Shown: positions 7,712-49,714 of the stretch, piece by piece | Layout of the letters: every line of letters starts with the position of its first letter | Numbering within the stretch: position 1 is the stretch's first letter | Program-made: the position numbers and the translations under genes | Source: Escherichia coli | GTDB taxonomy: Bacteria; Pseudomonadota; Gammaproteobacteria; Enterobacterales; Enterobacteriaceae | Assembly (NCBI RefSeq): GCF_024700885.2 | Contig: NZ_CP117016.1 | DNA length: 64,000 nt | Reading direction: 5' to 3' (one strand) | Notes under the pieces: model-generated | The model's input: the letters and a program-made list of their open reading frames with translations, nothing else | The model's database searches: none | Told to the model about the DNA's origin: nothing

Positions 7712-7727
7712 AATATATACCTTTTAT

Positions 7728-14214: not shown

Positions 14215-14243
14215 TTGATGATGTGATCCTAATCTCTTCAGGT

Positions 14244-14349: not shown

Positions 14350-14616
14350 AATTTCAGCAGAAATTATTTCCGCAGGGATAAATAGATCTATTTCCGTCTC
14401 GTTTCTTCTAATCCATTCTTCAGGCATGAATGTATTCGGTCTTCTGGTAATTTCAGAAAACTGGCCGTTTTAGAATGTAAAGTTAATTTCTCAGGAAATT
14501 ATTTCTACCTCTTTTTGCTTAACCAATATGGCTTGAAAAAGACGTAAAGCAGCATGCGTTCTGGATTACTCCGGAACACACTTATTCAAAATGGGCTGCT
14601 AATTTCGCAAGAAATT
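14350..14616. repeat. Three copies of a palindrome AATTTC-N4-GAAATT, each followed by ATTT(C/T), in the kps region 3 upstream/leader region; degenerate half-copies continue to about 15070
   Basis: Read directly: aatttcagcagaaatt (about 14350), aatttctcaggaaatt (about 14485), aatttcgcaagaaatt (about 14601); half-sites near 14449, 15000 and 15058. Confidence 0.7.
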
Positions 14617-19047: not shown

Positions 19048-19607
19048 GGCATCCTCTCATCACATTGATTGAGGGATAACGCGCCATCGTGCGCCAGCTT
19101 TACCGCCCAACATGCGTTTTGCGCCGCCGAGTAGAAGCGCAGCGTAAACGGCGTGGCAGGTTCAAAAGGCGAAAAACGGATCTGCGGCGTCTTCTTTTTC
19201 GCCTCTTTTTGCAGCTCCAGTTCAATATCGTGCAGCGTCAGGCGACGGCGTTGCAGCTCCAGCGCATATTCCTTCTGCCAGATATCACTTCCGGGTTGTA
19301 ACAGCATTTGCACCTGTTTCGGCACCGTAACCTGTGCCGATAACCGGGTCGCAGAAACGGGCAACCATTGCCCGTGACGACGCTGCATAAACTGGTAACC
19401 TGGCGGGTCGATTAGCACACCGAGTGTTTGCCCTTCGATCACTGCCCTGTCCTTAAACTGCGCAAAGCGAGTCAGAAAATCCTGCGCCGCTTTTTTCGCA
19501 GGCGGCTCTGAAGCGGTCGCAAACGTCTGTACCACGCCCGCACTGGCAAGGCCGATAAGGAAAATCACCAGCATGATTTCCAGAAGTGTGAATCCGCGTT
19601 CAGGCAC
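19044..19607 (-). CDS. gspH: Type II secretion minor pseudopilin H
   Basis: 187 aa; prepilin-type N-terminus RGFTLLEIMLVIFLIG. Confidence 0.85.
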   Translation of the reverse strand: MPERGFTLLEIMLVIFLIGLASAGVVQTFATASEPPAKKAAQDFLTRFAQFKDRAVIEGQTLGVLIDPPGYQFMQRRHGQWLPVSATRLSAQVTVPKQVQMLLQPGSDIWQKEYALELQRRRLTLHDIELELQKEAKKKTPQIRFSPFEPATPFTLRFYSAAQNACWAVKLAHDGALSLNQCDERMP

Positions 19608-19610
19608 TGA

Positions 19611-20066
19611 TTACTGAAACTCCTGCAAATTCCAGTTACCGATATCTGCGCCAGCGCCCTCCCCGTTTTCCTGACCATCTGCTCCCAGGGTATAAACATC
19701 AAACAGCCCTTTTTCACCCGGGCTGAGATACTGATAATCATTGCCCCACGGATCTTTTGGCAGTCGTTTAATGTACCCACCGGTACGGTAGTTACGGGAA
19801 TCCGCCATATTGGCCGGTTGCTGGATCAGCGCCTCAAGCCCCTGTTCTGTGGTCGGATAACGCCCGTTATCCAGTCGGTACATATCCAGCGCATTCTCCA
19901 GCGCCACGATATCGCTGATGGCTTTTTGCCGATCCGCTTTCTCTTTATTGCCCAACAGGTTAGGCACCACCAGACTTGCCAGGACGCCAAGAATAACAAT
20001 CACCACCATCACTTCCAGCAGGGTAAAACCTGCCCGTGGTTTTTGTGTGCGGGATAACGAATTCAT
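19611..20066 (-). CDS. gspG: Type II secretion major pseudopilin G
   Basis: Prepilin N-terminus AGFTLLEVMVVIVILGVLASLVVPNL; start placed at MNSLSRTQK (the track ORF is 9 codons longer). Confidence 0.85.
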   Translation of the reverse strand: MNSLSRTQKPRAGFTLLEVMVVIVILGVLASLVVPNLLGNKEKADRQKAISDIVALENALDMYRLDNGRYPTTEQGLEALIQQPANMADSRNYRTGGYIKRLPKDPWGNDYQYLSPGEKGLFDVYTLGADGQENGEGAGADIGNWNLQEFQ

Positions 20067-20082
20067 GTGATAACTCCGTAAA

Positions 20083-35969: not shown

Positions 35970-36734
35970 ATGAAAGATGAACGTCGCCCTATTTGCGAAG
36001 TGGTTGCAGAGAGTATCGAACGGTTAATTATCGACGGCGTACTGAAGGTCGGTCAGCCGCTTCCCTCGGAACGTCGACTGTGTGAAAAGCTCGGCTTCTC
36101 ACGCTCCGCACTGCGTGAAGGGCTGACCGTGCTGCGCGGGCGCGGGATTATTGAAACAGCGCAGGGTCGCGATTCTCGTGTCGCACGGCTTAATCGGGTG
36201 CAGGACACCAGCCCGCTGATCCATCTGTTCAGTACGCAGCCGCGAACGCTGTATGATCTGCTCGACGTTCGCGCATTACTGGAGGGCGAATCGGCAAGGC
36301 TGGCGGCAACGCTGGGAACCCAGGCTGATTTTGTTGTGATAACCCGCTGTTATGAAAAAATGCTCGCCGCCAGTGAGAACAACAAAGAGATTTCGCTGAT
36401 CGAACATGCGCAGTTGGATCACGCTTTCCATCTCGCCATTTGTCAGGCTTCTCACAATCAGGTGCTGGTGTTTACACTGCAATCATTGACCGACTTGATG
36501 TTTAATTCAGTGTTTGCCAGCGTAAATAATCTCTACCATCGACCACAGCAAAAAAAGCAGATCGATCGCCAGCATGCGCGGATCTACAACGCGGTGTTGC
36601 AGCGGCTGCCGCACGTCGCCCAGCGCGCAGCACGCGATCATGTGCGGACCGTGAAAAAGAATCTCCACGATATCGAGCTGGAAGGTCACCATTTGATTCG
36701 CTCGGCGGTGCCGCTGGAGATGAACCAGAGTTAG
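35970..36734 (+). CDS. glcC: Glycolate operon transcriptional activator (GntR/FadR family)
   Basis: N-terminal winged HTH (RLCEKLGFSRSALREGLTVL); divergent from glcD; start taken at MKDERRPI (about 254 aa). Confidence 0.88.
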   Translation: MKDERRPICEVVAESIERLIIDGVLKVGQPLPSERRLCEKLGFSRSALREGLTVLRGRGIIETAQGRDSRVARLNRVQDTSPLIHLFSTQPRTLYDLLDVRALLEGESARLAATLGTQADFVVITRCYEKMLAASENNKEISLIEHAQLDHAFHLAICQASHNQVLVFTLQSLTDLMFNSVFASVNNLYHRPQQKKQIDRQHARIYNAVLQRLPHVAQRAARDHVRTVKKNLHDIELEGHHLIRSAVPLEMNQS

Positions 36735-36740
36735 CTGGTA

Positions 36741-37883
36741 TTAAATCTGCTTTTCATACAATCGGTAACGCTTGTACGGCTCCGCCCCAATGCGTTCCAG
36801 CATGTTATTCATGCCTGTATTGGTTTCGAGGATCCATGACATTTCCAGCGCATCGATCTTCCGGCGGGCAAACGGATCGCGTAAGGCTTCAATCAATAAC
36901 AGCGCAATCACCGGGCCGATGCGGCTAAACTGATACTCGTCCCGCACGCCCATCAGCGGTACTCGCGCAGTTCGCACACCGCTGACTTTTAAACGCCACA
37001 GCAATTTTGCCCAGCCGAAGGGAAAGAGCGATCCGTTCAGATCGGCAATCGCCTCGTTGATGTTTGGCAAGCCGACAATAAACGCGCAGGGTGCAGAATC
37101 AATCTCAGCGATGTAGATCATATCGTCCGGCACCAGATATTTAAGTTGATCGCCCATGGTCGCGAATTCATGTTCGGTAAACGGCACAAATCCCCAGTTG
37201 TGCTGCCAGCCAGAGTTGAAAATCTCACGCAGGATCTGCATCTCTTCGGCAAACCGCTGGCGATTGATGCAGCGAATGGTCACCTTCTTACGCACCTGAT
37301 CCATCAGTTTTTTTAGCGCCGGAGAGAAAGTGAGATCGGTTCGCTGCATCCACCACGCCAGTAAATCAATGCCTTTGTGATAACCCAATTGTTCAATATG
37401 CGCGGCATACCACGGTTTGCCATGTGGCATCATCGCACAGGGTGGTGTGTCAAAACCTTCAATCAGTAATCCGCTTTCCTGATTGATATTCAGGCTGAAA
37501 GGCCCGCTGATCTTACTTGCACCTTGTGACTTCAACCACGCTTCCGCTGCGCCAAACAACGCGGCAAAAACCTGCGGATCATCAATGGCGTCAATCATGC
37601 CGAAATGACCGGTATCTTCGCCGTAACGCTCACGGTGCAAGGTATCGATTTGCGCGGTAATTCGCCCAACTATCTGCCCGGCTTTTTTTGCCACCCACGC
37701 CTGCCAGATGATATGGTCCGTCCCCGGATTCTTCGTAGACAAATGCTCGCTGCGTTCAATGAATAAAGGGGGTATCCAGTTTGGATCATCGGGATAAAGT
37801 GATGACGGAAAAGCGATAAATGCCTTAAGGTCATTTTTATTAATTACTTTTTCAATTTTAATCATCAGCAGATCGCATTCCAT
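36741..37883 (-). CDS. yghO: YghO-family protein, candidate acyl-CoA N-acyltransferase (GNAT-like fold); possible lipid N-acyltransferase
   Basis: About 375-380 aa soluble protein divergent from the lipid operon; family assignment from memory; function inferred from genomic context only. Confidence 0.5.
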   Translation of the reverse strand: MECDLLMIKIEKVINKNDLKAFIAFPSSLYPDDPNWIPPLFIERSEHLSTKNPGTDHIIWQAWVAKKAGQIVGRITAQIDTLHRERYGEDTGHFGMIDAIDDPQVFAALFGAAEAWLKSQGASKISGPFSLNINQESGLLIEGFDTPPCAMMPHGKPWYAAHIEQLGYHKGIDLLAWWMQRTDLTFSPALKKLMDQVRKKVTIRCINRQRFAEEMQILREIFNSGWQHNWGFVPFTEHEFATMGDQLKYLVPDDMIYIAEIDSAPCAFIVGLPNINEAIADLNGSLFPFGWAKLLWRLKVSGVRTARVPLMGVRDEYQFSRIGPVIALLLIEALRDPFARRKIDALEMSWILETNTGMNNMLERIGAEPYKRYRLYEKQI

Positions 37884-38159
37884 ATCTCTGTGGATAACAA
37901 ATAATTAACGGTGACAAACAGATTGCAACAGCAACGAACGGCACCTTAATAATCAACCCAATGAATACAAACGACGAATAAATAGTATTTATTAATGATT
38001 ACGATAAGGTTAGAGACTACACAGAAGCGCCACAATGCCTTTTGTCGATTTAAGGCGACCGGACAAGGCTTCTTCTTAATATATTCACAAATTAAATATC
38101 ATTCACAATAAAAACAAAAAAACTCAAACTCATTATTTAAATCAATGTTCATTTTCACA

Positions 38160-38227
38160 CTGATGAAAATACTATCTCATTTATCTTTTATGCCTATATA
38201 ATCCACCGCATTATTGTCATTTTATTT
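38160..38227 (+). promoter_or_regulatory. Candidate promoter for the lipid-biosynthesis operon in the AT-rich yghO-divergent intergenic region
   Basis: TATAAT hexamer at about 38197-38202, some 25-55 nt upstream of the candidate start codons; AT-rich upstream tract. Confidence 0.3.
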
Positions 38228-39979
38228 TTGATATCCAATTTTTTCGTGGTGTATATGTCTAATAAAATCTTTACGCATTCCCTACCTATGCGCTATGCCG
38301 ATTTTCCAACGCTGGTTGATGCTTTGGACTACGCCGCTCTGAGTAGCGCCGGAATGAATTTTTATGACAGACGTTGCCAACTTGAAGATCAACTGGAATA
38401 TCAGACGTTAAAAGCGCGTGCCGAAGCTGGTGCGAAGCGGTTGTTATCGCTGAACCTGAAAAAAGGCGATCGCGTGGCGCTGATTGCCGAAACCAGTAGC
38501 GGGTTCGTAGAGGCTTTTTTTTCCTGCCAGTATGCCGGCTTAGTCGCCGTCCCGTTGGCGATTCCAATGGGCGTCGGTCAGCGGGATTCCTGGAGCGCCA
38601 AACTGCAGGGTTTACTGGCAAGTTGCCAGCCCGCAGCCATTATCACTGGTGATGAGTGGTTACCGCTGGTCAATGCCGCGACGCATAACAACAACCCCGA
38701 ATTACATGTTTTAAGCCACGCCTGGTTTAAGACATTACCGGAAGCCGATGTTGCGCTCCAGCGTCCAGTTCCGAACGATATCGCCTACCTCCAGTACACT
38801 TCCGGCAGCACCCGTTTTCCCCGTGGCGTCATTATCACCCATCGCGAAGTGATGGCTAATCTACGTGCTATAAGCCACGATGGCATTAAATTACGCCCTG
38901 GCGACCGCTGCGTCTCCTGGCTGCCTTTCTACCATGATATGGGACTGGTCGGCTTTCTCCTGACCCCCGTCGCCACGCAGCTTTCAGTAGATTATTTGCG
39001 CACTCAGGATTTTGCCATGCGTCCTCTGCAATGGCTTAAATTGATCAGTAAAAATCGCGGCACCGTTTCCGTTGCGCCGCCGTTTGGCTATGAATTGTGC
39101 CAGCGCCGCGTGAATGAAAAAGATCTCGCTGAACTGGATCTTTCCTGCTGGCGCGTCGCTGGTATTGGTGCAGAACCCATCTCCGCAGAACAACTCCATC
39201 AATTCGCTGAATGTTTCCGTCAGGTCAACTTTGACGATAAAACTTTCATGCCGTGCTACGGACTGGCAGAAAATGCGCTGGCTGTCAGCTTCTCTGATGA
39301 AGCTTCCGGGGTTGTGGTTAACGAAGTGGATCGCGACATCCTCGAATATCAGGGCAAAGCCGTCGCGCCGGATGCTGAAACACGCGCCGTATCGACTTTC
39401 GTCAACTGCGGTAAAGCGTTGCCGGAACATGGCATTGAAATCCGCAATGAAGCAGGTATGCCGGTCGCGGAACGTGTGGTAGGCCATATTTGCATCTCCG
39501 GCCCCAGCCTGATGAGCGGTTACTTTGGCGACCAGATTTCACAAGACGAGATTGCCGCGACGGGCTGGTTAGACACCGGCGACCTCGGTTATCTGCTGGA
39601 CGGTTATCTGTATGTCACCGGACGCATTAAAGATCTGATTATTATTCGTGGCCGTAATATCTGGCCGCAGGATATTGAATATATTGCGGAACAGGAACCG
39701 GAAATTCATTCTGGCGATGCGATTGCTTTTGTTACCGCCCAGGAAAAAATCATTTTGCAGATCCAGTGTCGGATCAGCGATGAAGAACGTCGCGGGCAGC
39801 TTATCCACGCGCTGGCAGCACGGATCCAAAGCGAATTTGGCGTGACCGCGGCTATCGATCTGTTGCCGCCCCACAGTATTCCCCGAACGTCCTCCGGCAA
39901 GCCTGCCCGTGCGGAAGCGAAAAAACGTTATCAGAAGGCTTATGCTGCAAGCCTTCATGTGCAGGAATCCCTGGCATGA
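38228..39979 (+). CDS. Fatty acyl-AMP ligase / acyl-ACP synthetase (adenylate-forming enzyme)
   Basis: About 575-583 aa; AMP-binding signature LQYTSGSTRFPRGV; C-terminal lysine region; the true start may be the ATG at 38255. Confidence 0.8.
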   Translation: MISNFFVVYMSNKIFTHSLPMRYADFPTLVDALDYAALSSAGMNFYDRRCQLEDQLEYQTLKARAEAGAKRLLSLNLKKGDRVALIAETSSGFVEAFFSCQYAGLVAVPLAIPMGVGQRDSWSAKLQGLLASCQPAAIITGDEWLPLVNAATHNNNPELHVLSHAWFKTLPEADVALQRPVPNDIAYLQYTSGSTRFPRGVIITHREVMANLRAISHDGIKLRPGDRCVSWLPFYHDMGLVGFLLTPVATQLSVDYLRTQDFAMRPLQWLKLISKNRGTVSVAPPFGYELCQRRVNEKDLAELDLSCWRVAGIGAEPISAEQLHQFAECFRQVNFDDKTFMPCYGLAENALAVSFSDEASGVVVNEVDRDILEYQGKAVAPDAETRAVSTFVNCGKALPEHGIEIRNEAGMPVAERVVGHICISGPSLMSGYFGDQISQDEIAATGWLDTGDLGYLLDGYLYVTGRIKDLIIIRGRNIWPQDIEYIAEQEPEIHSGDAIAFVTAQEKIILQIQCRISDEERRGQLIHALAARIQSEFGVTAAIDLLPPHSIPRTSSGKPARAEAKKRYQKAYAASLHVQESLA

Positions 39980-40890
39980 ATCAAACTGTCGCGGTGACGG
40001 GCGCTACCGGGTTTATCGGTAAATATATTATCGATAACCTGCTCGCCCGCGGCTTTCACGTTCGCGCATTGACGCGTACTGCCCGCGCTCACGTCAATGA
40101 CAATCTCATCTGGGTGCGCGGTTCTCTGGAAGATACTCATTCACTTAGCGAACTGGTTGCCGGAGCCAGCGCGGTGGTCCATTGCGCCGGACAAGTGCGC
40201 GGGCACAAAGAAGAGATTTTTACCCGCTGTAACGTTGACGGCAGCCTGCGACTGATGCAAGCGGCAAAAGAGAGCGGCTTTTGCCAACGTTTTCTGTTTA
40301 TCTCTTCGCTGGCGGCGCGCCATCCCGAACTCTCCTGGTACGCAAATTCCAAACACGTCGCCGAACAACGGCTGACCGCAATGGCTGACGAAATTACGCT
40401 GGGCATTTTTCGCCCGACAGCCGTGTATGGTCCCGGCGATAAAGAGTTAAAACCGCTGTTTGACTGGATGCTGCGCGGCCTACTGCCACGACTTGGTGCG
40501 CCAGATACACAGCTCTCTTTCCTGCACGTCACCGATTTCGCGCAAGCCGTGGGGCAGTGGTTAAGCGCCGAAACTGTACAGACGCAAACCTATGAATTAT
40601 GCGATGGCGTCGCCGGCGGCTATGACTGGCAACGCGTAAGACAGCTTGCCGCCGACGCCCGTTGCGGTTCCGTTCGAATGGTTGGTATTCCTCTGTCGGT
40701 ACTCACCTGCCTTGCGGATATCAGTACTGCGTTGAGTCGCCTGGCAGGTAAAGAACCTATGCTGACCCGCTCGAAAATTCGTGAATTAACCCACGCCGAC
40801 TGGTCGGCAAATAATAACCGTATTTCTGAAGATATTAATTGGTTTCCCGGGATTAGCCTGGAACACGCATTACGCAACGGGCTATTTTGA
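39976..40890 (+). CDS. NAD(P)-dependent epimerase/dehydratase-family reductase (extended SDR), candidate 3-keto reductase
   Basis: 304 aa; Rossmann motif VTGATGFIGKYI; YxxxK catalytic motif (YANSK); start overlaps upstream stop (ATGA). Confidence 0.75.
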   Translation: MNQTVAVTGATGFIGKYIIDNLLARGFHVRALTRTARAHVNDNLIWVRGSLEDTHSLSELVAGASAVVHCAGQVRGHKEEIFTRCNVDGSLRLMQAAKESGFCQRFLFISSLAARHPELSWYANSKHVAEQRLTAMADEITLGIFRPTAVYGPGDKELKPLFDWMLRGLLPRLGAPDTQLSFLHVTDFAQAVGQWLSAETVQTQTYELCDGVAGGYDWQRVRQLAADARCGSVRMVGIPLSVLTCLADISTALSRLAGKEPMLTRSKIRELTHADWSANNNRISEDINWFPGISLEHALRNGLF

Positions 40891-40921
40891 TTGTCTTGTT
40901 TAAAGGTGTGTTAACGTTTCT

Positions 40922-41170
40922 ATGGTAAATCGTGAAATAGTAATGGATTACATCCTTTCCTGTTTACAGGATTTGGTCGAAAACGGTGTGGAAATTAAGC
41001 CCGACAGCGATCTCGTCAACGATCTTGGCCTGGAGTCGATCAAAGTGATGGATCTCTTAATGATGCTGGAAGACAGATTCGATATTTCCATTCCTATTAA
41101 TATTCTGCTGGATGTCAAAACCCCTGCGCAATTAATGGAAACACTACTTCCATGGCTGGAGAATAAATAA
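40922..41170 (+). CDS. Dedicated acyl carrier protein
   Basis: 82 aa acidic protein with the phosphopantetheine attachment motif DLGLESIKVMDL. Confidence 0.75.
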   Translation: MVNREIVMDYILSCLQDLVENGVEIKPDSDLVNDLGLESIKVMDLLMMLEDRFDISIPINILLDVKTPAQLMETLLPWLENK

Positions 41171-42342
41171 TGGGGCTATACGATAAATATGCGCGCCTTG
41201 CTGGCGAGCGACTGCAATTTAGTGACAACGGGTTAACACCGTTTGGCACCTGTATTGATGAAGTGTATTCCGCCACCGAAGGTCGGATTGGCAATAAAAA
41301 AGTGATTCTGGCCGGGACCAATAATTATCTCGGTTTAACCTTTAATCATGATGCCATCGCCGAAGGTCAGGCAGCGTTAGCGGCCCAAGGCACCGGCACC
41401 ACCGGTTCTCGTATGGCAAACGGCAGTTATGCGCCGCATCTGGCGTTAGAGAAAGAGATCGCCGAGTTTTTTAATCGCCCTACCGCTATCGTTTTTTCAA
41501 CCGGTTATACCGCTAATTTAGGCGTCATCAGCGCACTTGCCGACCATAACGCCGTGGTGTTACTGGATGCCGACAGCCACGCCAGTATTTATGACGCCTG
41601 TTCTCTCGGTGGCGCGGAAATTATTCGTTTCCGCCATAACGATGCTAAAGATCTGGAACGGCGCATGGTTCGCCTCGGTGAACGGGCAAAAGAGGCGATT
41701 ATCATCGTTGAAGGCATCTACAGTATGCTCGGTGACGTTGCGCCGCTGGCGGAAATTGTTGATATCAAACGTCGTCTCGGTGGTTATTTGATTGTCGATG
41801 AAGCGCATTCGTTTGGCGTGTTAGGCGCAACGGGGCGCGGACTGGCTGAAGCCGTTGGCGTTGAAGATGATGTGGATATTATCGTTGGTACCTTCAGTAA
41901 AAGTCTGGCCTCGATTGGCGGTTTTGCTGTCGGTTCGGAAGCGATGGAAGTGTTGCGCTACGGCAGCCGCCCGTATATTTTTACCGCCTCTCCTTCTCCG
42001 TCCTGCATTGCGACCGTGCGCTCGTCGTTAAGAACCATTGCCTCACAACCAGAGTTGCGGCAAAAGCTGATGGATAATGCCAACCATCTGTATGACGGTC
42101 TGCAAAAACTGGATTATGAGTTAAGTTCACATATTAGCCCGGTAGTGCCAGTAATAATCGGTTCGAAAGAGGAAGGTTTACGCATCTGGCGCGAGCTTAT
42201 TTCGCTGGGCGTTTATGTGAATCTTATCCTGCCACCTGCCGCGCCTGCAGGCATCACGCTGCTGCGCTGTAGCGTAAACGCTGCCCACAGTCGTGAGCAA
42301 ATTGATGCCATCATTCAAGCGTTCGCTACTCTGAAGCAGTAA
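41170..42342 (+). CDS. PLP-dependent alpha-oxoamine synthase (serine palmitoyltransferase / 8-amino-7-oxononanoate synthase family)
   Basis: 390 aa; PLP-lysine motif GTFSKSLASIGGF and DEAHSFG motif typical of the AOS family; start overlaps the ACP stop. Confidence 0.8.
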   Translation: MGLYDKYARLAGERLQFSDNGLTPFGTCIDEVYSATEGRIGNKKVILAGTNNYLGLTFNHDAIAEGQAALAAQGTGTTGSRMANGSYAPHLALEKEIAEFFNRPTAIVFSTGYTANLGVISALADHNAVVLLDADSHASIYDACSLGGAEIIRFRHNDAKDLERRMVRLGERAKEAIIIVEGIYSMLGDVAPLAEIVDIKRRLGGYLIVDEAHSFGVLGATGRGLAEAVGVEDDVDIIVGTFSKSLASIGGFAVGSEAMEVLRYGSRPYIFTASPSPSCIATVRSSLRTIASQPELRQKLMDNANHLYDGLQKLDYELSSHISPVVPVIIGSKEEGLRIWRELISLGVYVNLILPPAAPAGITLLRCSVNAAHSREQIDAIIQAFATLKQ

Positions 42343-42348
42343 TGTGAG

Positions 42349-42378
42349 CCCGCTGTGGTGTTGCGCCACGGCGGGTTT
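42349..42378 (+). terminator. Rho-independent terminator at the end of the + strand biosynthetic operon, overlapping the 3' end of the convergent permease gene
   Basis: GC-rich inverted repeat cccgctgtgg-N7-ccacggcggg followed by TTT. Confidence 0.55.
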
Positions 42379-43456
42379 AATGTTGTCTGTCATACCAATA
42401 CACCAGGCTCAACGCCACCAGCACAAACGCTACCGGTAAACCGAGCGCGGTAACAGGTGCGCTCAACGCAAATAGCAATCCCAGATTGACCATGATTTGA
42501 TAGCTGATCCAGGTAAGTAAGCCCACGATGACGCCTACAGCGAGACGGCTACCCATCCCAGGCGAACGCGGGGCACTAAAGGTAAACGGCACAGCCAGCA
42601 AAATCATCGCCAGGGTCAGGATGGGTTGTCCCAGTTTTTCCCACAGTGCAAGGCGGTATTCGCTGCTGGGTTGCCCAGTTTCCTGCAAATAATGGATGTA
42701 ATGATTAAGTTGACGGACAGAAAAAGTATTTCCCGGCATCGATAACTCTTCAAGATTCATACTGGTGAAGGCCGATTGCCAGGCAAGATTATCTGATGTT
42801 TCCAGCGTTTCTTTGCCATTCAACCATTTTTTATGATTCACACCATGCAGGATCCATGTTTTGTCGTCTTCAATGGAGGCACTGCGTGCAAAAATGTAGG
42901 ATTCGAGCGAGAGATCGTCGCGATAATGAAATATCTCCACGCCCACAGGCTGGCCCTGCTCGTTCAGCGATTTCACCGTCACAAATTCATTACCGCGCCT
43001 GGCCCAAAGCATATTGCCGGTAATGTCATCGTCCTCCCCCAACGCGGTGGCAGTCGATTTGATTTGCAGCGCCTGTTGCTGCAATGGCGACGCCACCCAC
43101 TCATCTATCGCGCCTAACGAAACAGTCCACAATATCCCGGCAACCAGCGCCACCAGTGCAATACGGAAGATAGAAAACCCAGTGCTGCGAATGGCGGTAA
43201 GCTCACTGTTTTTCGATAACTGCCCCAGGCCAACAATCCCTCCCAATAATGCGATAAACGGCGAAAGTTCGACCAGTGTACGCGGTAAGGTCATCAGCAC
43301 CACCAGCACCGCCTGAGTCCAGCGATAACCGCCCGGGCTGACATCATCCAGTTCGTTAATCAGGTTGAAGGTGGTAAAAAGCGGCAGCAATAGCCCTGCG
43401 GCGGCGGCAAAACCGAGAAAGAGATGACGGATTAAATAGCGACTGAAAACATTCAT
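42377..43456 (-). CDS. LptG-like permease (YjgP/YjgQ family) paralogue
   Basis: About 359 aa from MNVFSRYLIRHLF; six-TM permease architecture with a periplasmic domain, as in LptF/LptG; start overlaps the upstream gene stop (ATGA). Confidence 0.7.
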   Translation of the reverse strand: MNVFSRYLIRHLFLGFAAAAGLLLPLFTTFNLINELDDVSPGGYRWTQAVLVVLMTLPRTLVELSPFIALLGGIVGLGQLSKNSELTAIRSTGFSIFRIALVALVAGILWTVSLGAIDEWVASPLQQQALQIKSTATALGEDDDITGNMLWARRGNEFVTVKSLNEQGQPVGVEIFHYRDDLSLESYIFARSASIEDDKTWILHGVNHKKWLNGKETLETSDNLAWQSAFTSMNLEELSMPGNTFSVRQLNHYIHYLQETGQPSSEYRLALWEKLGQPILTLAMILLAVPFTFSAPRSPGMGSRLAVGVIVGLLTWISYQIMVNLGLLFALSAPVTALGLPVAFVLVALSLVYWYDRQH

Positions 43457-44523
43457 CGGGAAAATTTCTGCAGCAAAGAGAAGTCGCGTGCGACCAGCAT
43501 CAGCAGGCCCATTAGCATGAGTCCGGGTACTAACCACAAACCAGGAATGAGGGGAATCGCGCCGTTAGCCACCAGCGTACGGCAGACGTCGCCGCCATAA
43601 AAAATGGCAATAAACAGCAACGTCAGTGGCAATAATGTTGAAAATCGCCCTTGCCGCGGTTTTACCCGACTTAATGAAATGGCCAGCAGCGCCATCAACA
43701 ATGCTGTCAGGCCACGGCTTTGTCGCCATTGCAGTTCGGCATGATCGGCTGGAAAGACGGAGCGCGCCAGCTCCGTGACCGATTTCGCTTTGCGTTTGAC
43801 GTTAGGGCTTTGATCCAGCGGATTCAGATGTAATTGCAGATTACGGTAGATCTGTTCGTTGTCGTCACGCCCCTGATGATCGAGAAGATAGGCAGTGCCG
43901 TTGTGCAACATAACAGTCGGTTTCTCAGGTGATGGGTCAACCACATCAACCGAACGGGCGCGGAAAATGCGGGTTCGATTGGCAGTAGAAGTATAAATCA
44001 GCGCGTCAGTCAGGCGATTATTATCCTGATCAACCGTCTGCGAAAGGATCATTCGTCCGTTATCGTTAGTGTTAAATTTCTTTGCCCGCAACTGGCGAAC
44101 ATCCAGCTCCGACTGTGACTGTTGCTCCAGTTGATAAATCTGCGCATAAGCCCACGGACGACCATACATCGACAGAAGGGTGACAAAAATACTTAGCGGT
44201 ATCGCCAGATAAAGAACGGCTTTGTACAAGCGTCCCGGACTGCCCCCCGCCGCGGAGATAGCGGTAATTTCCGAGTCGGTATACATTTGCCCTAGCGTCA
44301 CGCCAACTGAAGCATATAGTCCAACAGGTAACAGCATCTCCAGTGCAATCAGCACTTTGTAGAAAACGATATCCAGCACAACATCAAGAGCTAATGTCCC
44401 ATTTGCCGCTTCGGTCAGATAACGCTGTGCGGAGTAGCTGGCGAAAATAAAGATCAGAAACCCGACGATAATCAGCACCAGACGGCGCGTACCACGCATG
44501 ATGTAGTGTTCAACCAGCTTCAT
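43453..44523 (-). CDS. LptF-like permease (YjgP/YjgQ family) paralogue
   Basis: 356 aa; N-terminus MKLVEHYIMRGTRRLVLIIVGFLIF resembles LptF/LptG N-termini; paired with the downstream LptG-like gene. Confidence 0.7.
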   Translation of the reverse strand: MKLVEHYIMRGTRRLVLIIVGFLIFIFASYSAQRYLTEAANGTLALDVVLDIVFYKVLIALEMLLPVGLYASVGVTLGQMYTDSEITAISAAGGSPGRLYKAVLYLAIPLSIFVTLLSMYGRPWAYAQIYQLEQQSQSELDVRQLRAKKFNTNDNGRMILSQTVDQDNNRLTDALIYTSTANRTRIFRARSVDVVDPSPEKPTVMLHNGTAYLLDHQGRDDNEQIYRNLQLHLNPLDQSPNVKRKAKSVTELARSVFPADHAELQWRQSRGLTALLMALLAISLSRVKPRQGRFSTLLPLTLLFIAIFYGGDVCRTLVANGAIPLIPGLWLVPGLMLMGLLMLVARDFSLLQKFSR

Positions 44524-44553
44524 CTCGCTAACGCCCTAAATCCTTTGAATTTT

Positions 44554-45117
44554 TTATTCATTGATCAGTTTCTGCGCCAGCGCAATGACATGATCTACCT
44601 CTTCCGGCGTCAGGCTGCCGTCCTTTGCCCACTGAATTTGCCCGTCTTTATTCAGCACCAGAATGGTTGAACTCTGCTCCGGCAACCGCCAGGCAACGCG
44701 TCCCAGTCCATTGCCGTCAATAACGAATTGCGCCCACGGATAGCGGCGTTTATTTTTTTCGATTTTGCCAACGACAAAATAGCCAGTACCAAAGATGGCA
44801 TCATCGGTGTTCACAATGGTGGTGGGCTGAAAACGATCCTGCGGAAAGTTTGCCGCTTCAACCGCTTTAATTAACAGTGAGTTCTTTTTCTTCGCCGACT
44901 TACGCCCGGCGATATACTGAATAATGCGGACTTTTCCCGCCAGCTGTGTGCTGTTCCACTTTTGGTAGTGAATTTCGTCGTCGCTATTCAGAAGCAACTC
45001 ACCGCCTTCCTGGATATAAACAGGGGTAACCGTTTTGCCAGTGACGAAATTGTGTGCCTGCACACCCGGGGCTAAGAGCATGATAATCAGCGCAATAATC
45101 AAACGAGATGACATCAT
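44554..45117 (-). CDS. Periplasmic protein with signal peptide (possibly YtfJ-like family)
   Basis: 187 aa; cleavable signal MMSSRLIIALIIMLLAPGVQA; family assignment tentative. Confidence 0.5.
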   Translation of the reverse strand: MMSSRLIIALIIMLLAPGVQAHNFVTGKTVTPVYIQEGGELLLNSDDEIHYQKWNSTQLAGKVRIIQYIAGRKSAKKKNSLLIKAVEAANFPQDRFQPTTIVNTDDAIFGTGYFVVGKIEKNKRRYPWAQFVIDGNGLGRVAWRLPEQSSTILVLNKDGQIQWAKDGSLTPEEVDHVIALAQKLINE

Positions 45118-45125
45118 TGCTCCGG

Positions 45126-45950
45126 TTATAGCGGAAAACGCGAAATCAGCAGCTCTAAGCGCTGGCGAATATCGCTATCCAGCGCCACCGGTGCATCATA
45201 CGACTGGCGGTTTTCCATATCATCCGCCACCATGTCGTCGTGTTTATCCCCCATCAGGCCATTAATGGCGGCGAGGAAGCGGGAAATCTGTAACGCTTCT
45301 TTATTTTCAGGATCAAGCGATCTTAAGGTGTCGTAATAAGAAACCTGCTGGCTGATGATTTTTCGCACATCATGAAATTCCCTGCCGGTTAGTCGCGGTT
45401 TGGCAATTATCTCTTTCAGGGTATGCATTTGCTTTTGCCGATAGGCAATAAAACCGCTTACGCTTTCTAACTGGCTATGGCGTAATGAATAGTTCACCAA
45501 CGACCAGACCGGAGAGCTTAAATAAACCCGTAACAGGTTGCCGTAATACGACACAATATTTTTCTTACCGTTACGAAAGCCGTCCTGAAAACGCCCCAAA
45601 AAAACGGTCGTTTTGCCGAATAAAAATCCGGCCTGATGCTTCTTTAAATACAGCCGTTGCGCAAAGCGCAGATGCTTGTAGCGCGCTCGCATGTATTTAT
45701 ACTTTTTGCGCTCGTCTGTCGTCAGTTCATCGCCTTTCGCCTGTTTGCGGATTAAACGCAGTAGCTCCTGACGATTAACACCATCCAGCCAGAATTTCAG
45801 GCATAACGCGTAATTATCATGGATGATTTCGGTGGTACAACTTAGTGCGATAGTCGGCGGCAAACTGACCTGTGCATCAACGACATCATCTTCTTCAATC
45901 GCAACAAATAGACGCTCGCTAGCCTCAAGCGGGAAATATTTTCTCATCAT
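45126..45950 (-). CDS. Hypothetical cytoplasmic protein, basic and Lys/Arg-rich
   Basis: 274-aa ORF tightly packed between the flippase gene and the periplasmic protein gene; no motif recognised by eye. Confidence 0.5.
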   Translation of the reverse strand: MMRKYFPLEASERLFVAIEEDDVVDAQVSLPPTIALSCTTEIIHDNYALCLKFWLDGVNRQELLRLIRKQAKGDELTTDERKKYKYMRARYKHLRFAQRLYLKKHQAGFLFGKTTVFLGRFQDGFRNGKKNIVSYYGNLLRVYLSSPVWSLVNYSLRHSQLESVSGFIAYRQKQMHTLKEIIAKPRLTGREFHDVRKIISQQVSYYDTLRSLDPENKEALQISRFLAAINGLMGDKHDDMVADDMENRQSYDAPVALDSDIRQRLELLISRFPL

Positions 45951-47299
45951 CAGGATTTCTCTCCGGCTGCGTTATAAAGCAAGGAATGGCGCTGAAAAAA
46001 TGCCTTTAAGGTTGGAATTAGCGAGAGCACCACATCCAGACATTGCCCAGCGAAGTAAGCAAATGCAGCCCCCAGCACGCCAAACAGATGACAGAACATG
46101 AACAGCAATACGATGTAGCCGATTGAGGCGATGGTTTGCGCCACGAGAAAAGCACGCTGTTTTCCCGCCATCAATAGCAATGACTCCTGTGGGAAGCCCA
46201 GCATTGAAATCACAATTGCGCCTAGCATCACCTGAATCAGGTCATACGCTTCGAGATACTTAACGCCAAACACCAGCGAAATGAGTGGCTTGCCGACGAT
46301 CAACACCACGAGCGCCACCAGAATACCGATTCCGCCCGCCAGTAAACCGGACTTCACGCCTAACAACCACGGCCTGGTGGTGCGCGGATCTAAACGCATC
46401 ACCTCTGGGTAAAAACTTTTACCCAGCAAACCCGCTGGCGTTCCGGCGGCGTCGAAGAATGTCATGGCGATTTTAAATAACCCGGCGGCAGCGGGTCCTA
46501 ACACGATCCCCACCAACACTGTGCTGCACGAGTTACGCGCCGACCAGATGGAGTGGGCAATGTTGGTTGACCAGACAAAACTCCACGCGCCTTTAATGTG
46601 TCGGGCAGACTCAAACAGATTCAATTTGAAGGCGTTATGGATATTTCTGCGGCGTAATTCGCGCGCGGCAAACCACCAGTACATGGTGCCGCCAACCAGA
46701 TTCGATGCGTACCAGGCAATAACAAAACCCGCAAAACCAAAATCAAAATACCAGGCTACGACGCTCCCCGCTGCGCGCAGAAAAGGTTTCGTCGCCTGCT
46801 GTACAGCAATCAAATCGAAGCGATCTACCGCACGCAGAATGCCGGTCGGCGTGGAGGAAGCCATTGAAGGAATGAGCGTGCAATACAGCGCTGCCAGCCA
46901 AAAGCTTTGGTCATCCAGACCTAATGAATGGGAAAGAAAAGGGAGTAAGGCAATGCCGCCGACAATCGCCACCGCGCCGCTGACGATATCCAGCGAGAAG
47001 GAAAATGAGACGACATTGCGGAATTGCTGCGGATTATTGTTGGTTAATGCTGGTGTTCCGTACTGCACCACCAACTGCCATGTCTGAAACTTAATAAAAT
47101 CGCTGATCGACTTGGCGTACGATTGCACAATCACCAGTACGCCAAACATGGCGGGCGTCATCCCTTTACCGGCACACGAGAGCGCCAACAGACCTAGCAA
47201 GGCGCTCACGACATTACTGGAGCCTAACCAGGCGCTATTGCGAATAATGGTGCGAAACGCGCCATCTGCAAACCAATGTTTGATGTTAAAACCCGCCAA
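45950..47299 (-). CDS. yghQ: MOP-superfamily (Wzx-like) polytopic flippase/exporter
   Basis: 449-aa ORF, highly hydrophobic with many predicted TM helices; I recall the K-12 counterpart as yghQ; start codon uncertain. Confidence 0.65.
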   Translation of the reverse strand: MAGFNIKHWFADGAFRTIIRNSAWLGSSNVVSALLGLLALSCAGKGMTPAMFGVLVIVQSYAKSISDFIKFQTWQLVVQYGTPALTNNNPQQFRNVVSFSFSLDIVSGAVAIVGGIALLPFLSHSLGLDDQSFWLAALYCTLIPSMASSTPTGILRAVDRFDLIAVQQATKPFLRAAGSVVAWYFDFGFAGFVIAWYASNLVGGTMYWWFAARELRRRNIHNAFKLNLFESARHIKGAWSFVWSTNIAHSIWSARNSCSTVLVGIVLGPAAAGLFKIAMTFFDAAGTPAGLLGKSFYPEVMRLDPRTTRPWLLGVKSGLLAGGIGILVALVVLIVGKPLISLVFGVKYLEAYDLIQVMLGAIVISMLGFPQESLLLMAGKQRAFLVAQTIASIGYIVLLFMFCHLFGVLGAAFAYFAGQCLDVVLSLIPTLKAFFQRHSLLYNAAGEKS

Positions 47300-47344
47300 T
47301 TCAGCCTGACCTTATCGTTGATAGTAAAAAGTATCCCGCCAGCC

Positions 47345-48103
47345 TTAAGTTAAACTTCGGCGGTCAGAAACGATGGCAACCAGAGAAACCGCCTTCTGTG
47401 CCTGTTCCAGCACTTCGCTGTAGGGCGCTCTGGAATCAATCTCAAGAATTTTTGTGCCGTTATAGCCAATCGTCGACATGACGCCGATTTTGTCCTGCAG
47501 CTCGGCATAGTCATGGTCAGGCTTGCGGGAGATGGCAGTATCAATATCAATCCCCAAACGAATGATTAATTCAGGACGGTATTGCGCCATTTTTTGGTAT
47601 AAACGCCGTTCGCGCTGCGCCAGAAACATGCTGATTTTCCCGGTCGCACGTTCGACGCCGATCCCCGGTCCGTCATAATAAAAGCCCGAAATTTCAGCCT
47701 GCGGGAAGCGATCGCTGACCACCAGAACGCCACTTTGCGCCAGTCGCTGAACCTTGCGTAGATTCGCCATTCTTCGCAGCGAGAAGCAGTACATAATCAC
47801 CGCCGCCCATAGCGCTGGAGATTTGGTTTTCATGCTTTGGGTTTTCGAGGATTTGGCCGCCAGTCGCCGTTCGAGCCAGACGCCAACCAACGGCAATCGT
47901 TTGATTGTGTCGCCGTCTTCGCCCGAGAGCAGCCCCAGATAGCGCCGCTCGGTTTGCCAGTGTTGTTGCAGCGATTTCACCAGGTCGGTGGTCAGTGTGG
48001 ATTTACCGGTGCCATCACACCCGACCACCGCAATCAGCCCCGGAATGTAGTTGGGCTGCGGCACGGTTGTACTATTAACAGTTTGTGTTTGTAGTGCATC
48101 CAT
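47345..48103 (-). CDS. yghR: P-loop NTPase, kinase-like (YghR/S/T family)
   Basis: 252 aa; N-proximal Walker A VVGCDGTGKST; DRF motif; no ABC signature motif seen. Confidence 0.7.
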   Translation of the reverse strand: MDALQTQTVNSTTVPQPNYIPGLIAVVGCDGTGKSTLTTDLVKSLQQHWQTERRYLGLLSGEDGDTIKRLPLVGVWLERRLAAKSSKTQSMKTKSPALWAAVIMYCFSLRRMANLRKVQRLAQSGVLVVSDRFPQAEISGFYYDGPGIGVERATGKISMFLAQRERRLYQKMAQYRPELIIRLGIDIDTAISRKPDHDYAELQDKIGVMSTIGYNGTKILEIDSRAPYSEVLEQAQKAVSLVAIVSDRRSLT

Positions 48104-48134
48104 TCGTTAAATCATCCCCTATCCATTTTGGTGA

Positions 48135-48848
48135 TCAGGAAAGCACGGCGTGAATTGCGCGTAGTGACGCTTGCATAATTTCATCGGCTGGTTGCCGACC
48201 ATCCAGTTCAAGGATCTTTGCGCCATTGAATGTCAGTTGCGGCGTAACGGCGATTTTTTCCTGTAACGCTGCCAGTTGGTGGTCAGGTTTACGCGAAAAC
48301 GCGGTTTGTTCATCAATGCCAAGACGAATCAACAATACGGGCAAATAAGACGCCATCCATTGGTACAGCTTCAGCTCGCGCTGCCTTAACATTTTTATCC
48401 AACCGTTACCGCCCGTGGTTTTTGCCAATTGCGGGCCATCAAAGCGAAAACCCGGCACTTCAACCTGCGGGTAGCGGTCGGTGATGAGCAGATAGCCTTG
48501 CTGGCTTTTACACAACATTTTGCGAAACTTATACGCCCGCCAGCAGGAAAGCAGATAGATAACCAGCGCAGTAATATTGCCAGGCGGTGTTGAGGGCTTT
48601 TCGTGCACATGTGCCGCTTTACTTCGCAGATAACGCCCAAAAGGTGCGCCAATAACAGGGAGCTGTGAAATCCATTCGCCAATTCGCCCGGACGATTGCC
48701 CGAGATAAATGTGTTCTGTTGGCATTCTTGCTGCCAGTTCATTTACCAGGCTTGCCGTGAGGGTCGATTTACCTGAACCATCACATCCTACAATGGCAAT
48801 AACACGCACTGGCGTGGAATTAATTATTGACATATTACGTTGATTCAC
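48135..48848 (-). CDS. yghS: P-loop NTPase, kinase-like (YghR/S/T family paralogue)
   Basis: 237 aa; Walker A IVGCDGSGKST; DRYP motif; same architecture as yghR. Confidence 0.7.
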   Translation of the reverse strand: MNQRNMSIINSTPVRVIAIVGCDGSGKSTLTASLVNELAARMPTEHIYLGQSSGRIGEWISQLPVIGAPFGRYLRSKAAHVHEKPSTPPGNITALVIYLLSCWRAYKFRKMLCKSQQGYLLITDRYPQVEVPGFRFDGPQLAKTTGGNGWIKMLRQRELKLYQWMASYLPVLLIRLGIDEQTAFSRKPDHQLAALQEKIAVTPQLTFNGAKILELDGRQPADEIMQASLRAIHAVLS

Positions 48849-49021
48849 GAAAAACCCGGCAGCAAATAATGTATTGAATATTACGTGGTCCGTGCTCAGA
48901 ATATCCGTTCAACCTTATTGTGACAATGGTTAATTGTGACATTGACCTGAATTACGCTTTCATAAAAACATATTAACCAAATAAATATTTTTAATGGATA
49001 TTCAAATTAAAGGATATATTC

Positions 49022-49714
49022 ATGCAGTCAATAACACCTCCATTAATTGCCGTTATTGGTAGCGATGGTTCAGGCAAGTCAACGGTGTGTGAACATCTCA
49101 TTACCGTTGTCGAAAAATATGGTGCTGCCGAAAGAGTTCATTTAGGAAAACAAGCCGGAAATGTCGGTCGTGCAGTGACAAAATTACCGTTGATGGGAAA
49201 ATCCTTACATAAAACAATTGAACGAAATCAGGTGAAAACAGCAAAAAAATTGCCTGGCCCTGTTCCGGCGCTGGTAATTACAGCGTTTGTCGCCCGTCGC
49301 TTACTGCGCTTTCGTCATATGCTTGCCTGTCGTCGTCGCGGGTTAATTGTTCTAACCGACCGTTATCCTCAGGACCAAATTCCTGGCGCTTACGATGGTA
49401 CAGTGTTCCCACCTAACGTTGAAGGCGGCCGGTTTGTCTCATGGCTGGCAAGCCAGGAACGTAAAGCATTTCACTGGATGGCGAGCCATAAGCCTGATCT
49501 GGTCATCAAACTCAATGTTGACCTTGAAGTTGCCTGCGCGCGTAAACCCGACCATAAACGGGAATCGCTGGCGAGGAAGATTGCAATAACGCCACAGTTA
49601 ACCTTTGGTGGTGCACAACTGGTTGATATCGATGCCAATCAGCCACTGGAAAAGGTGCTGGTTGATGCAGAAAAAGCGATTACGGATTTTATGACCGCGC
49701 GTGGTTATCACTAG
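49022..49714 (+). CDS. yghT: P-loop NTPase, kinase-like (YghR/S/T family paralogue)
   Basis: 230 aa; Walker [16 protein letters not shown] motif; divergent from yghS. Confidence 0.7.

Follow-up and report, generated by a model that had tools for sequence, protein, structure and literature searches.

The window, a 64,000-nucleotide segment of the Escherichia coli chromosome flanked by glcC and pitB, contains four plus-strand open reading frames that encode a fatty acyl-AMP ligase/acyl-ACP synthetase (aasR, 38255..39979), an NAD(P)-dependent extended-SDR reductase (cerR, also called epi, 39976..40890), a specialized 82-amino-acid acyl carrier protein (acpR, 40922..41170), and a PLP-dependent alpha-oxoamine synthase, serine palmitoyltransferase (spt, 41170..42342). 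An earlier sequence-only reading correctly recognized these four genes, their domain families, and two overlapping junctions, but it missed a fifth pathway gene, the divergent yghO (36741..37883, minus strand). It also began the operon at 38228, where a TTG does form the mechanical start of the open reading frame. The gene itself starts at the ATG at 38255, which PGAP uses in a strain that matches window positions 36700-44600 with 100% DNA identity, and which corresponds to the first residue of the crystallized construct 3PBK. The PGAP start of aasR in BL21 lies 11 codons further in.

Gene junctions and flanking signals

The aasR stop codon (TGA, 39977-39979) and the cerR start codon (ATG, 39976-39978) form a 4-nt ATGA overlap at 39976..39979 (context GGC ATG A), and the last base of the acpR stop codon (TAA, 41168-41170) is also the first base of the spt start codon (ATG, 41170-41172), giving the sequence TAATG at 41168..41172 (context AAA TAA TGG). 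The cerR and acpR genes do not overlap and are separated by a 31-nt spacer (40891-40921). The ATGA overlap is kept in Serratia liquefaciens and Pluralibacter gergoviae, where the ACP and SPT gene calls overlap by 14 nt. Overlaps of this kind would permit translational coupling within each pair. They are, however, ordinary operon anatomy since the genome has many gene pairs that overlap by 1 or 4 nt; in the 30-kb BL21 locus this is the case for 5 of the 19 same-strand neighbor pairs (glcE/D, ligase/SDR, ACP/spt, lptG/F, and hyp/yghQ). The claim of fixed-stoichiometry co-translation was thus an over-reading, because such overlaps are common and the second and third genes are 31 nt apart.

The 371-bp region between yghO and aasR (37884..38254) is AT rich (31% GC compared to 52% in the operon) and presumably holds the promoters and regulatory sites of both genes. 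A scan of this region for the sigma-70 consensus gave no convincing promoter, the best site having 9 of 12 matches, which is the chance level. Downstream, spt and lptG2 converge and are separated by 34 nt, where a terminator-like scan found a GC-rich 16-bp hairpin (42345..42379). The hairpin is likely a bidirectional terminator, a role that is inferred only since it lacks a strong T-run.

Enzymes of the locus

The operon has already been characterized and is named in RefSeq, so it is not new. In BL21(DE3), studied by Padilla-Gomez et al. 2022 (Front Microbiol 13:961041; PMC9386255), the genes ECD_02850-ECD_02854 lie at the same chromosomal locus, bounded by glcC and the lptG/lptF paralogues, and agree in gene order and junctions. 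The products of yghO/aca (ECD_02850), aasR (ECD_02851), epi (ECD_02852), acpR (ECD_02853), and spt (ECD_02854) are 99.2, 98.0, 96.4, 100, and 99.0% identical, respectively, to those of the window, with solely allelic variation between them (a few substitutions and, in aasR, an indel of one codon). The window derives from a strain other than BL21(DE3), and its best match is strain 1190 (100% identity across window positions 36700-44600).

AasR scores 871.5 bits against the FAAL profile NF006624 (cut-off 600) in an NCBIfam profile search and is about 99% identical over its full length (1286 bits) to EcFAAL, whose crystal structure is PDB 3PBK ('Fatty Acyl-Adenylate Ligase'). EcFAAL loads C12 onto holo-EcACP (PMC8460268). 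AasR adenylates free fatty acid and hands the acyl group to holo-AcpR rather than to CoA. The carrier protein itself has only weak ACP family matches under the housekeeping cut-offs (35.6 compared to 71), and its orthologues in Serratia and Pluralibacter carry PF00550. Ser39, within a 'GLES' motif, is the predicted site of phosphopantetheine attachment. AcpR and ECD_02853 share one protein accession (WP_000248097.1), and the BL21 protein (AcpR_Ec) was labeled by beta-[3H]alanine in vivo and hence carries 4'-phosphopantetheine (PMC9386255), a modification on which the sequence-only reading had depended.

Spt scores 595.8 bits against NF047599, above the NCBIfam equivalog cut-off of 500, and matches the Sphingomonas paucimobilis SPT (SpSPT, 2JG2) with E=2.7e-110. 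Its residues H137, D210, H213, K244, and R366 align with H159, D231, H234, K265, and R390 of SpSPT. One active-site position differs, as Arg378 of SpSPT is Leu354 in Spt; the active BL21 enzyme also has Leu. PGAP names the gene spt, and it is annotated so in thousands of genomes. In an in-vitro [14C]serine assay, palmitoyl-AcpR was a far better substrate for SPT_Ec than palmitoyl-CoA or acyl-AcpP, the preference being measured with Caulobacter rather than E. coli acyl-AcpR, and AasR_Ec, AcpR_Ec, and SPT_Ec together make 3-oxo-sphinganine in vivo (PMC9386255). Spt forms 3-oxo-sphinganine from L-serine and acyl-AcpR. The proposals that acyl-ACP rather than acyl-CoA is the donor and that the genes serve sphingoid-base synthesis are therefore borne out by the BL21(DE3) orthologues, which are 96.4-100% identical.

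The assignments of the two remaining enzymes are predictions. CerR contains GATGFIG at residues 9-15 and Y122-A-N-S-K126 (Y122-x3-K126). No NCBIfam equivalog model is above its cut-off for CerR (best HpnA, 92.8 compared to 367), and its best PDB matches include NDUFA9 subunits of complex I and SDRs of the NAD-dependent epimerase/dehydratase type. Its BL21 counterpart is named as a pathway gene, 'epi ECD_02852', in PMC9386255, and CerR is predicted to be the 3-keto reductase of the pathway in E. coli. YghO, entered as 'aca: yghO ECD_02850' in the same work (PMC9386255), has no Pfam or NCBIfam match of its own, and PF00583 is matched by 7 of 67 members of its family. Its AF2 model (pLDDT 96.3) has tandem GNATs as top PDB folds (2WPW, 5KF1, 7Q3A, and MshD), and in Serratia and Pluralibacter the gene is likewise divergent and adjoins the operon. 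YghO is homologous to the bacterial ceramide synthase, known as bCerS or 'aca' (CC_1154 in Caulobacter), and has a predicted N-acyltransferase role in E. coli.

Caulobacter crescentus possesses the same five enzymes, encoded by CC_1165-CC_1162 (aasR, cerR, acpR, and spt) and CC_1154 (cerS/bCerS) within the 17-gene sphingolipid cluster CC_1168-CC_1152. The aasR-cerR-acpR-spt order is the same as judged by locus-tag numbering. Caulobacter Spt likewise prefers acyl-AcpR, yet AasR_Ec fails to acylate AcpR_Cc (PMC9386255). The SPTs of S. paucimobilis and S. wittichii (2JG2 and 2X8U; E ~1e-110) are of the soluble homodimer type (~390-420 amino acids) and have the His/Asp/His/Lys/Arg catalytic set in common with Spt. 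An ACP gene lies just upstream of SPT in S. wittichii, as here, whereas aasR is distant from acpR-spt in sphingomonads. The SPTs of Bacteroidetes and eukaryotes, the latter a membrane heteromer, likewise join serine to a fatty acyl thioester by a PLP-dependent decarboxylative Claisen condensation, but use acyl-CoA and have no dedicated ACP or FAAL; Spt scores 262 bits against the S. multivorum type and 372 against the Sphingomonas type. The mycobacterial FAAL-ACP/PKS systems (FadD32-Pks13 and relatives) use the same ligase family to adenylate fatty acids for transfer to a phosphopantetheine arm and not to CoA. Their acceptor is the ACP domain of a PKS, while that in the window is a stand-alone ACP feeding a PLP enzyme.

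Proposed pathway and competing explanations

The region is very probably the E. coli sphingolipid (dihydroceramide) operon aasR-cerR-acpR-spt with its divergent gene yghO. In the proposed pathway, AasR, with its CoA pocket blocked, would adenylate a free fatty acid and transfer the acyl group to 4'-phosphopantetheine on Ser39 of AcpR. Spt, with PLP at Lys244, would then join L-serine and acyl-AcpR in a decarboxylative condensation yielding 3-oxo-sphinganine. YghO, a tandem-GNAT N-acyltransferase, would attach a second acyl chain, and CerR, an NDUFA9-like SDR, would reduce the 3-keto group to give dihydroceramide; the order of these last two steps is unsettled. Experiments have demonstrated loading by AasR and condensation by Spt with proteins that are 98-100% identical to those of the window. 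The YghO and CerR steps in E. coli are suggested by Caulobacter homology and conserved synteny, and the E. coli proteins 'might' explain sphinganine- and ceramide-like spots (PMC9386255). The reconstitution proposed in the sequence-only reading has largely been done, because labeling of AcpR, formation of 3-oxo-sphinganine in vivo, and the preference for acyl-AcpR are published (PMC9386255). That reading of the locus is real, correctly interpreted, and already known.

The synthase could in principle have another alpha-oxoamine synthase (AOS) chemistry (BioF, Kbl, CqsA-type, or cysteate-, glycine-, or alanine-condensing) and make a non-sphingoid amino-ketone lipid, as the family is broad, SPTs have a relaxed substrate range, and Leu354 replaces Arg378 of SpSPT. 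This is highly improbable. Only the SPT equivalog passes its cut-off, with the BioF (333 compared to 426), Kbl (294 compared to 460), CqsA-type (219 compared to 428), and ALAS models of NCBIfam all failing, in keeping with the earlier exclusion of biotin and threonine metabolism, and the 99%-identical enzyme put L-[14C]serine into a product co-migrating with 3-oxo-sphinganine (PMC9386255). FAALs typically adjoin PKS/NRPS genes, and among the PDB relatives of AasR are PKS loading domains as well as saframycin Mx1 synthetase B, the latter echoed in an old style of annotation. A loading module for a lipopeptide or polyketide pathway would fit these relatives, but the neighborhood contains no PKS or NRPS gene, the ACP stop codon overlaps the start of the SPT gene, and the reconstituted product is 3-oxo-sphinganine (PMC9386255), leaving that assignment with next to no likelihood.

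A dihydroceramide pathway could follow the eukaryote-like step order, as proposed by the Geiger laboratory, rather than one in which acylation comes first and 3-oxo-ceramide is then reduced. E. coli CerR starts with its Rossmann motif at residue 4 and has no N-terminal signal peptide, and so is compatible with a cytoplasmic enzyme beside Spt; a further argument is the putative translational coupling of cerR with the gene of the cytoplasmic ligase. In Caulobacter, on the other hand, oxidized ceramide builds up when cerR is deleted, and CerR shows the behavior of a peripheral membrane protein of the periplasm, in line with a model in which the reductase acts on N-acylated 3-oxo-ceramide and not on the free 3-keto base (PMC11087976). 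The step order implied by the sequence-only reading is disputed for this reason, and the eukaryote-like order is a credible option with somewhat less than an even chance. It is also conceivable, though unlikely, that the enzymes are competent but that the cluster forms a cryptic island without transcription in E. coli, with no natural lipid and no physiological role. No native E. coli sphingolipid has been reported in the literature. The chromosomal operon appears silent in the laboratory, because no 3-oxo-sphinganine is detectable in BL21(DE3) carrying empty vectors and expression of Spt alone is insufficient (PMC9386255). The low-GC upstream region has no clear sigma-70 promoter, about a quarter of complete E. 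coli genomes lack the operon, and K-12, which lost it next to an IS5, is viable. Against silence, 4067 of 5426 complete E. coli genomes carry the operon with all open reading frames intact, and all ten genes tested have dN/dS values of 0.04-0.15 relative to BL21, which indicates purifying selection at the protein level. Other enterobacterial genera preserve the cluster too, in differing chromosomal contexts: in Serratia and Pluralibacter the genes are arranged alike, yghO is again divergent, and the proteins are 70-85% identical in amino-acid sequence.

Neighboring genes

Two minus-strand genes downstream of spt encode second copies of LptG- and LptF-type permeases (lptG2, 42377..43456 with the PGAP start, TIGR04408, 304 bits; lptF2, 43453..44523, TIGR04407, 317 bits, with synteny). 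In Serratia and Pluralibacter the operon is likewise accompanied by both, and the Caulobacter sphingolipid cluster likewise contains LptF2/LptG2 (PMC11324152) along with a flippase. Beyond them on the same strand are a YtfJ-family gene (44554..45117; TIGR01626, 215 bits, and synteny), a gene for a hypothetical 274-amino-acid protein (45126..45950) that has no NCBIfam or PADLOC match and adjoins yghQ in Serratia and Pluralibacter too, and yghQ (45950..47299), which encodes a full-length MOP/Polysacc_synt-type flippase (NF007773; PF01943 in orthologues). The K-12 yghQ is truncated beside the IS5. The permeases, the flippase, and the other neighbors may process and export the lipid, as suggested by their co-travel only.

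Caulobacter also has cpgABC-type head-group genes for ceramide phosphoglycerate (CpgB being a ceramide kinase of the LCB5/DAG-kinase family) and LptC2, none of which is found among the 13 E. coli genes from yghO to yghT. E. coli instead has the YtfJ-family protein, the 274-amino-acid protein, and three dTMP-kinase-like P-loop proteins. The latter are encoded by yghR (47345..48103, minus strand), an ATP-binding protein assigned by a sub-cut-off TIGR00041 match (31.5 bits) and synteny, and by yghS (48135..48848, minus strand) and yghT (49022..49714, plus strand), both assigned from the open reading frame, PGAP name, and synteny.

The four-gene system and its junctions

The sphingoid-base system encoded by the four-gene operon is already known. 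The locus is annotated identically in BL21(DE3), and Padilla-Gomez et al. 2022 (PMC9386255) studied the genes ECD_02850-02854 of that strain under the names aca/yghO, aasR, epi, acpR and spt. With a ligase structure deposited as 3PBK, a reconstitution with the ACP, ligase and Spt of a near-identical strain and the name spt in RefSeq, there is nothing new in the finding of the four genes themselves. The sequence-only reading of the operon is supported except for its claim on stoichiometry and for a fifth gene that it missed, and the extended module is the sole part with some remaining novelty.

The operon lies on the + strand and begins with the ORF for the fatty acyl-AMP ligase AasR, which runs from 38228 (TTG) or 38255 (ATG) to 39979. 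The ATG at 38255 is the likely start: PGAP uses it in a strain that is identical over window positions 36700-44600, and the crystallised construct starts at the same point. The ligase gene is followed by ORFs for an SDR reductase (CerR, 39976-40890), an acyl carrier protein of 82 aa (AcpR, 40922-41170) and an alpha-oxoamine synthase of 390 aa (Spt, 41170-42342), all on the + strand. Both overlapping junctions that had been described are confirmed along with the four ORFs: read from the sequence, the ligase stop overlaps the reductase start in an ATGA at 39976-39979 (+), and the ACP stop and synthase start have one base in common in a TAATG at 41168-41172 (+). The middle junction, between reductase and ACP, is a 31-nt spacer. 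A 16-bp hairpin (42345-42379) occupies the gap between spt and the convergent lptG paralogue.

The overlaps had also been taken to indicate co-translation at a fixed stoichiometry, and this part of the reading is not supported. Overlaps of 1 and 4 bases occur in 5 of the 19 same-strand neighbour pairs of the annotated BL21 locus; being routine there, they mark an operon but carry no particular information on stoichiometry. The overlaps are nonetheless conserved: Serratia liquefaciens and Pluralibacter gergoviae also have ATGA where the ligase and reductase genes meet, and their ACP and synthase genes overlap by 14 nt.

Acyl activation and condensation with serine

AasR is assigned to the fatty acyl-AMP ligases (FAALs) by NCBIfam profile comparison, in which it passes the FAAL model NF006624 (871.5 bits, cut-off 600) and falls below the cut-off of all CoA-ligase models (FadD, 100.6 bits against 884). 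The protein matches PDB 3PBK, an E. coli "Fatty Acyl-Adenylate Ligase", over its full length (1286 bits) and by that match is the same protein, whose structure defines it as a FAAL with its CoA pocket blocked. It is 98.0% identical to the BL21 ligase ECD_02851. Compared with BL21 and 3PBK, aasR has an indel of one codon at residues ~144-147, reading HNNNPE here and HD-NPE there (18834-20522 of the BL21 locus, L004), and the BL21 gene is called 11 codons shorter at its 5' end than the gene of the best-matching genome, strain 1190 (PGAP).

Using radio-CS-PAGE, Patil et al. 2021 (PMC8460268) found that EcFAAL transfers lauric acid to holo-EcACP and that mutations of the pocket abolish this step. 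Their EcACP is UniProt A0A2X1NC35, whose identity with the ACP at 40922-41170 is not confirmable from the paper text, and transfer from AasR to its ACP therefore rests mainly on PMC9386255. In that study the E. coli ligase AasR_Ec functions in vivo with AcpR_Ec, not with the Caulobacter carrier AcpR_Cc; the enzyme used in its CoA-rejection assay was the Caulobacter ligase. Transfer of the acyl group to holo-ACP is thus published for a near-identical E. coli protein, and rejection of CoA for the Caulobacter enzyme.

The carrier protein AcpR is divergent. Its matches to ACP models span residues 4-75 and all lie under the housekeeping cut-offs. Ser39, within the motif DLGLES of a small PP-binding fold, is the conserved serine predicted to bear the 4'-phosphopantetheine, and AcpR orthologues carry PF00550. 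The protein is 100% identical to ECD_02853, and Padilla-Gomez et al. 2022 (PMC9386255) found that this AcpR_Ec incorporates beta-[3H]alanine, indicating that it carries 4'-phosphopantetheine.

Spt passes the serine palmitoyltransferase equivalog NF047599 (rhodobacterial type) with 595.8 bits against a cut-off of 500. Membership of the BioF or Kbl families, which would place the enzyme in biotin or threonine metabolism, is rejected as both equivalog cut-offs are failed (BioF, 333.3 against 426.45; Kbl, 294.4 against 460), and the models for ALAS (217 against 339) and CqsA-type enzymes (219 against 428) are failed as well. Spt aligns with the Sphingomonas paucimobilis SPT (SpSPT) at E=2.7e-110, and its residues H137, D210, H213, K244 and R366 align to the catalytic set H159, D231, H234, K265 and R390 of that enzyme, K265 being the PLP Schiff-base lysine. 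SpSPT Arg378 is replaced by Leu354 in Spt, while Arg390 is retained as R366. The active BL21 enzyme is identical at position 354, so an arginine there is dispensable for activity.

Spt is 99.0% identical to ECD_02854, for which the reaction is published: serine and an acyl thioester yield 3-oxo-sphinganine, with acyl-AcpR preferred. In a [14C]serine assay, palmitoyl-AcpR was a far better substrate for SPT_Ec than either palmitoyl-CoA or acyl-AcpP (PMC9386255), and coexpression of AasR_Ec, AcpR_Ec and SPT_Ec gave 3-oxo-sphinganine on TLC in vivo, with the ligase requiring its own ACP (PMC9386255). The sequence-only reading had proposed acyl-ACP instead of acyl-CoA as the donor, and the preference of the BL21 SPT_Ec for palmitoyl-AcpR (PMC9386255) bears this out. 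It was also right to choose sphingoid-base chemistry over biotin or threonine metabolism, given the SPT model passed, the BioF and Kbl models failed and the published 3-oxo-sphinganine. The in vitro reconstitution that it suggested has largely been published already, as ACP loading and serine condensation are both on record (PMC9386255, PMC8460268).

Proposed reduction and acylation, and the divergent gene yghO

CerR, whose gene lies between aasR and acpR, belongs to the extended SDRs, with the NAD(P) Rossmann motif GATGFIG at residues 9-15 and the catalytic pair Y122xxxK126, and it is 96.4% identical to the BL21 reductase ECD_02852. Its relatives in the PDB include NDUFA9 subunits of complex I and other SDRs of the epimerase/reductase type, and the position of the gene is kept in three genera (E. 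coli, Serratia and Pluralibacter). In the wording of PMC9386255, E. coli epi "might" reduce the 3-keto group, and CerR is accordingly a candidate that might act on 3-oxo-sphinganine or 3-oxo-ceramide. The Rossmann motif of CerR starts at residue 4, no signal peptide is obvious, and the start codon overlaps the stop of the gene for a cytoplasmic ligase.

Two orders have been put forward for the reduction and acylation steps, and the matter is in dispute. In the scheme of the Geiger laboratory, reduction precedes acylation (PMC9386255). The Klein laboratory proposes that acylation comes first and that the oxidised ceramide is then reduced by a periplasmic CerR (PMC11087976), the Caulobacter CerR being reported as periplasmic in the same work (PMC11087976).

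The pathway had been described as one of four genes; these are present as described, and the fifth that was missed is yghO (36741-37883, - strand), which is divergent from the operon across a 371-bp intergenic region. This divergent arrangement is found in E. coli, Serratia and Pluralibacter and links the gene genetically to spt. YghO is 99.2% identical to the BL21 protein and was named a homologue of the Caulobacter ceramide synthase CC_1154 (PMC9386255). The protein has no match in Pfam or NCBIfam. Its family numbers 6513 representatives at E<=1e-3, and GNAT PF00583 is matched by 7 of 67 family members. The AlphaFold model (pLDDT 96.3) is a tandem GNAT, with 2WPW, 5KF1, 7Q3A and MshD as top PDB neighbours. 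This predicted fold fits the published assignment of YghO as a bacterial ceramide synthase (bCerS, "aca"), for which the likeness to CC_1154 is taken from the paper. Three distant homologues (P0124, P0170 and P0247) lie on contigs of 1.5-2.6 kb, where gene context is uninformative. The K-12 annotation of YghO, "putative DNA-binding transcriptional regulator", is at odds with the tandem-GNAT fold.

Distribution, expression and a possible wider module

Of 5426 complete E. coli genomes, 4608 match a 7.9-kb query around the operon, strain 1190 at 100% identity, and the operon by itself is found at >=80% coverage in 4067. All operon matches are chromosomal with one exception. The locus is flanked by glcDEF-glcC on one side and by yghR/S/T-pitB-gss-hyb on the other. 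K-12 MG1655 lacks the whole operon together with lptG2, lptF2, ytfJ and hyp274, and carries IS5 (insH9) between truncated copies of yghO and yghQ (MG1655 positions 3129043-3132408). Relative to BL21, dN/dS is 0.04-0.15 for each of the ten genes yghO to yghQ (for aasR from a codon-threaded alignment, owing to the one-codon indel), indicating that the genes are kept by purifying selection. An intact ceramide pathway that selection maintains is thus present in about three quarters of the complete E. coli genomes, though not in K-12, a fact that is little appreciated.

In the laboratory, 3-oxo-sphinganine was not detectable in BL21 carrying empty vectors (PMC9386255). The region between yghO and aasR (37884-38254) has 31% GC against 52% for the operon, and a sigma-70 promoter scan of it returned chance-level matches only, none of them convincing. 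The low GC content and the absence of a clear promoter may relate to the fact that the cluster appears silent in BL21 in the laboratory, for instance through silencing of the H-NS type.

Beyond spt, the stretch 42377-49714 holds second copies of lptG and lptF (lptG2 and lptF2), a YtfJ-family gene, a gene for a hypothetical protein of 274 aa (hyp274, 45126-45950), the MOP flippase gene yghQ and the P-loop genes yghR, yghS and yghT. In Serratia liquefaciens all 13 genes occur together in another chromosomal context, with the block from yghS to lptG2 inverted. Pluralibacter gergoviae has at least 10 of the 13, those from yghQ to yghO, in a third context, the yghR/S/T side not having been retrieved. 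The sphingolipid cluster of Caulobacter contains LptF2, LptG2 and LptC2 with a flippase, for which sphingolipid transport has been proposed (PMC11324152), and the E. coli arrangement of LptF2/LptG2 and a flippase is analogous.

Co-travel of the genes, purifying selection and the analogy with Caulobacter make it conceivable, though somewhat short of probable, that a single 13-gene module is present, namely yghO / aasR-cerR-acpR-spt / lptG2-lptF2-ytfJ-hyp274-yghQ-yghR-yghS / yghT. The operon could tentatively be seen as the core of this enterobacterial module, which would make and modify a ceramide-based lipid and export it to the outer membrane. Its hosts would possibly be most natural E. coli, plus Serratia, Pluralibacter and relatives. 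If so, the K-12 orphans yghO, yghQ, yghR, yghS and yghT would be what is left of the module in that strain, and the second LptF/LptG pair would serve specifically to extract sphingolipids. Sphingolipids of gut bacteria influence their hosts, and for this reason a sphingolipid of commensal or pathogenic E. coli with a dedicated LptF/LptG exporter would be of real interest. That interest concerns the surroundings and physiology of the operon, not the four genes as described.

In the literature searched, no paper linking yghQRST to sphingolipids was found. Two other roles for the neighbours were considered and rejected. CpgB, the ceramide kinase of Caulobacter, is a member of the LCB5/DAG-kinase family with a GGDG motif; YghR has only a weak match to P-loop dTMP kinases, and a CpgB-type ceramide kinase role for yghR/S/T was set aside. 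Anti-phage defence was likewise dismissed, as PADLOC returned no meaningful matches.

Two further regions of the window differ from related strains. In the type II secretion (gsp/yghD) cluster, at 21306-22260, ~5.2 kb present in strains 1190 and BL21 is missing, comprising part of gspE together with gspD, gspC, gspS2 and pppA; the gspE ORF is shortened to 267 aa, with REP-like repeats between it and sslE. By comparison with strain 1190, positions 1-14500 hold a group-2 capsule (kps-type) cluster. Within it, a stretch of low GC (0.31-0.36) at ~6350-12793 has no close match to the strain 1190 capsule region and therefore looks like a serotype-specific region 2.
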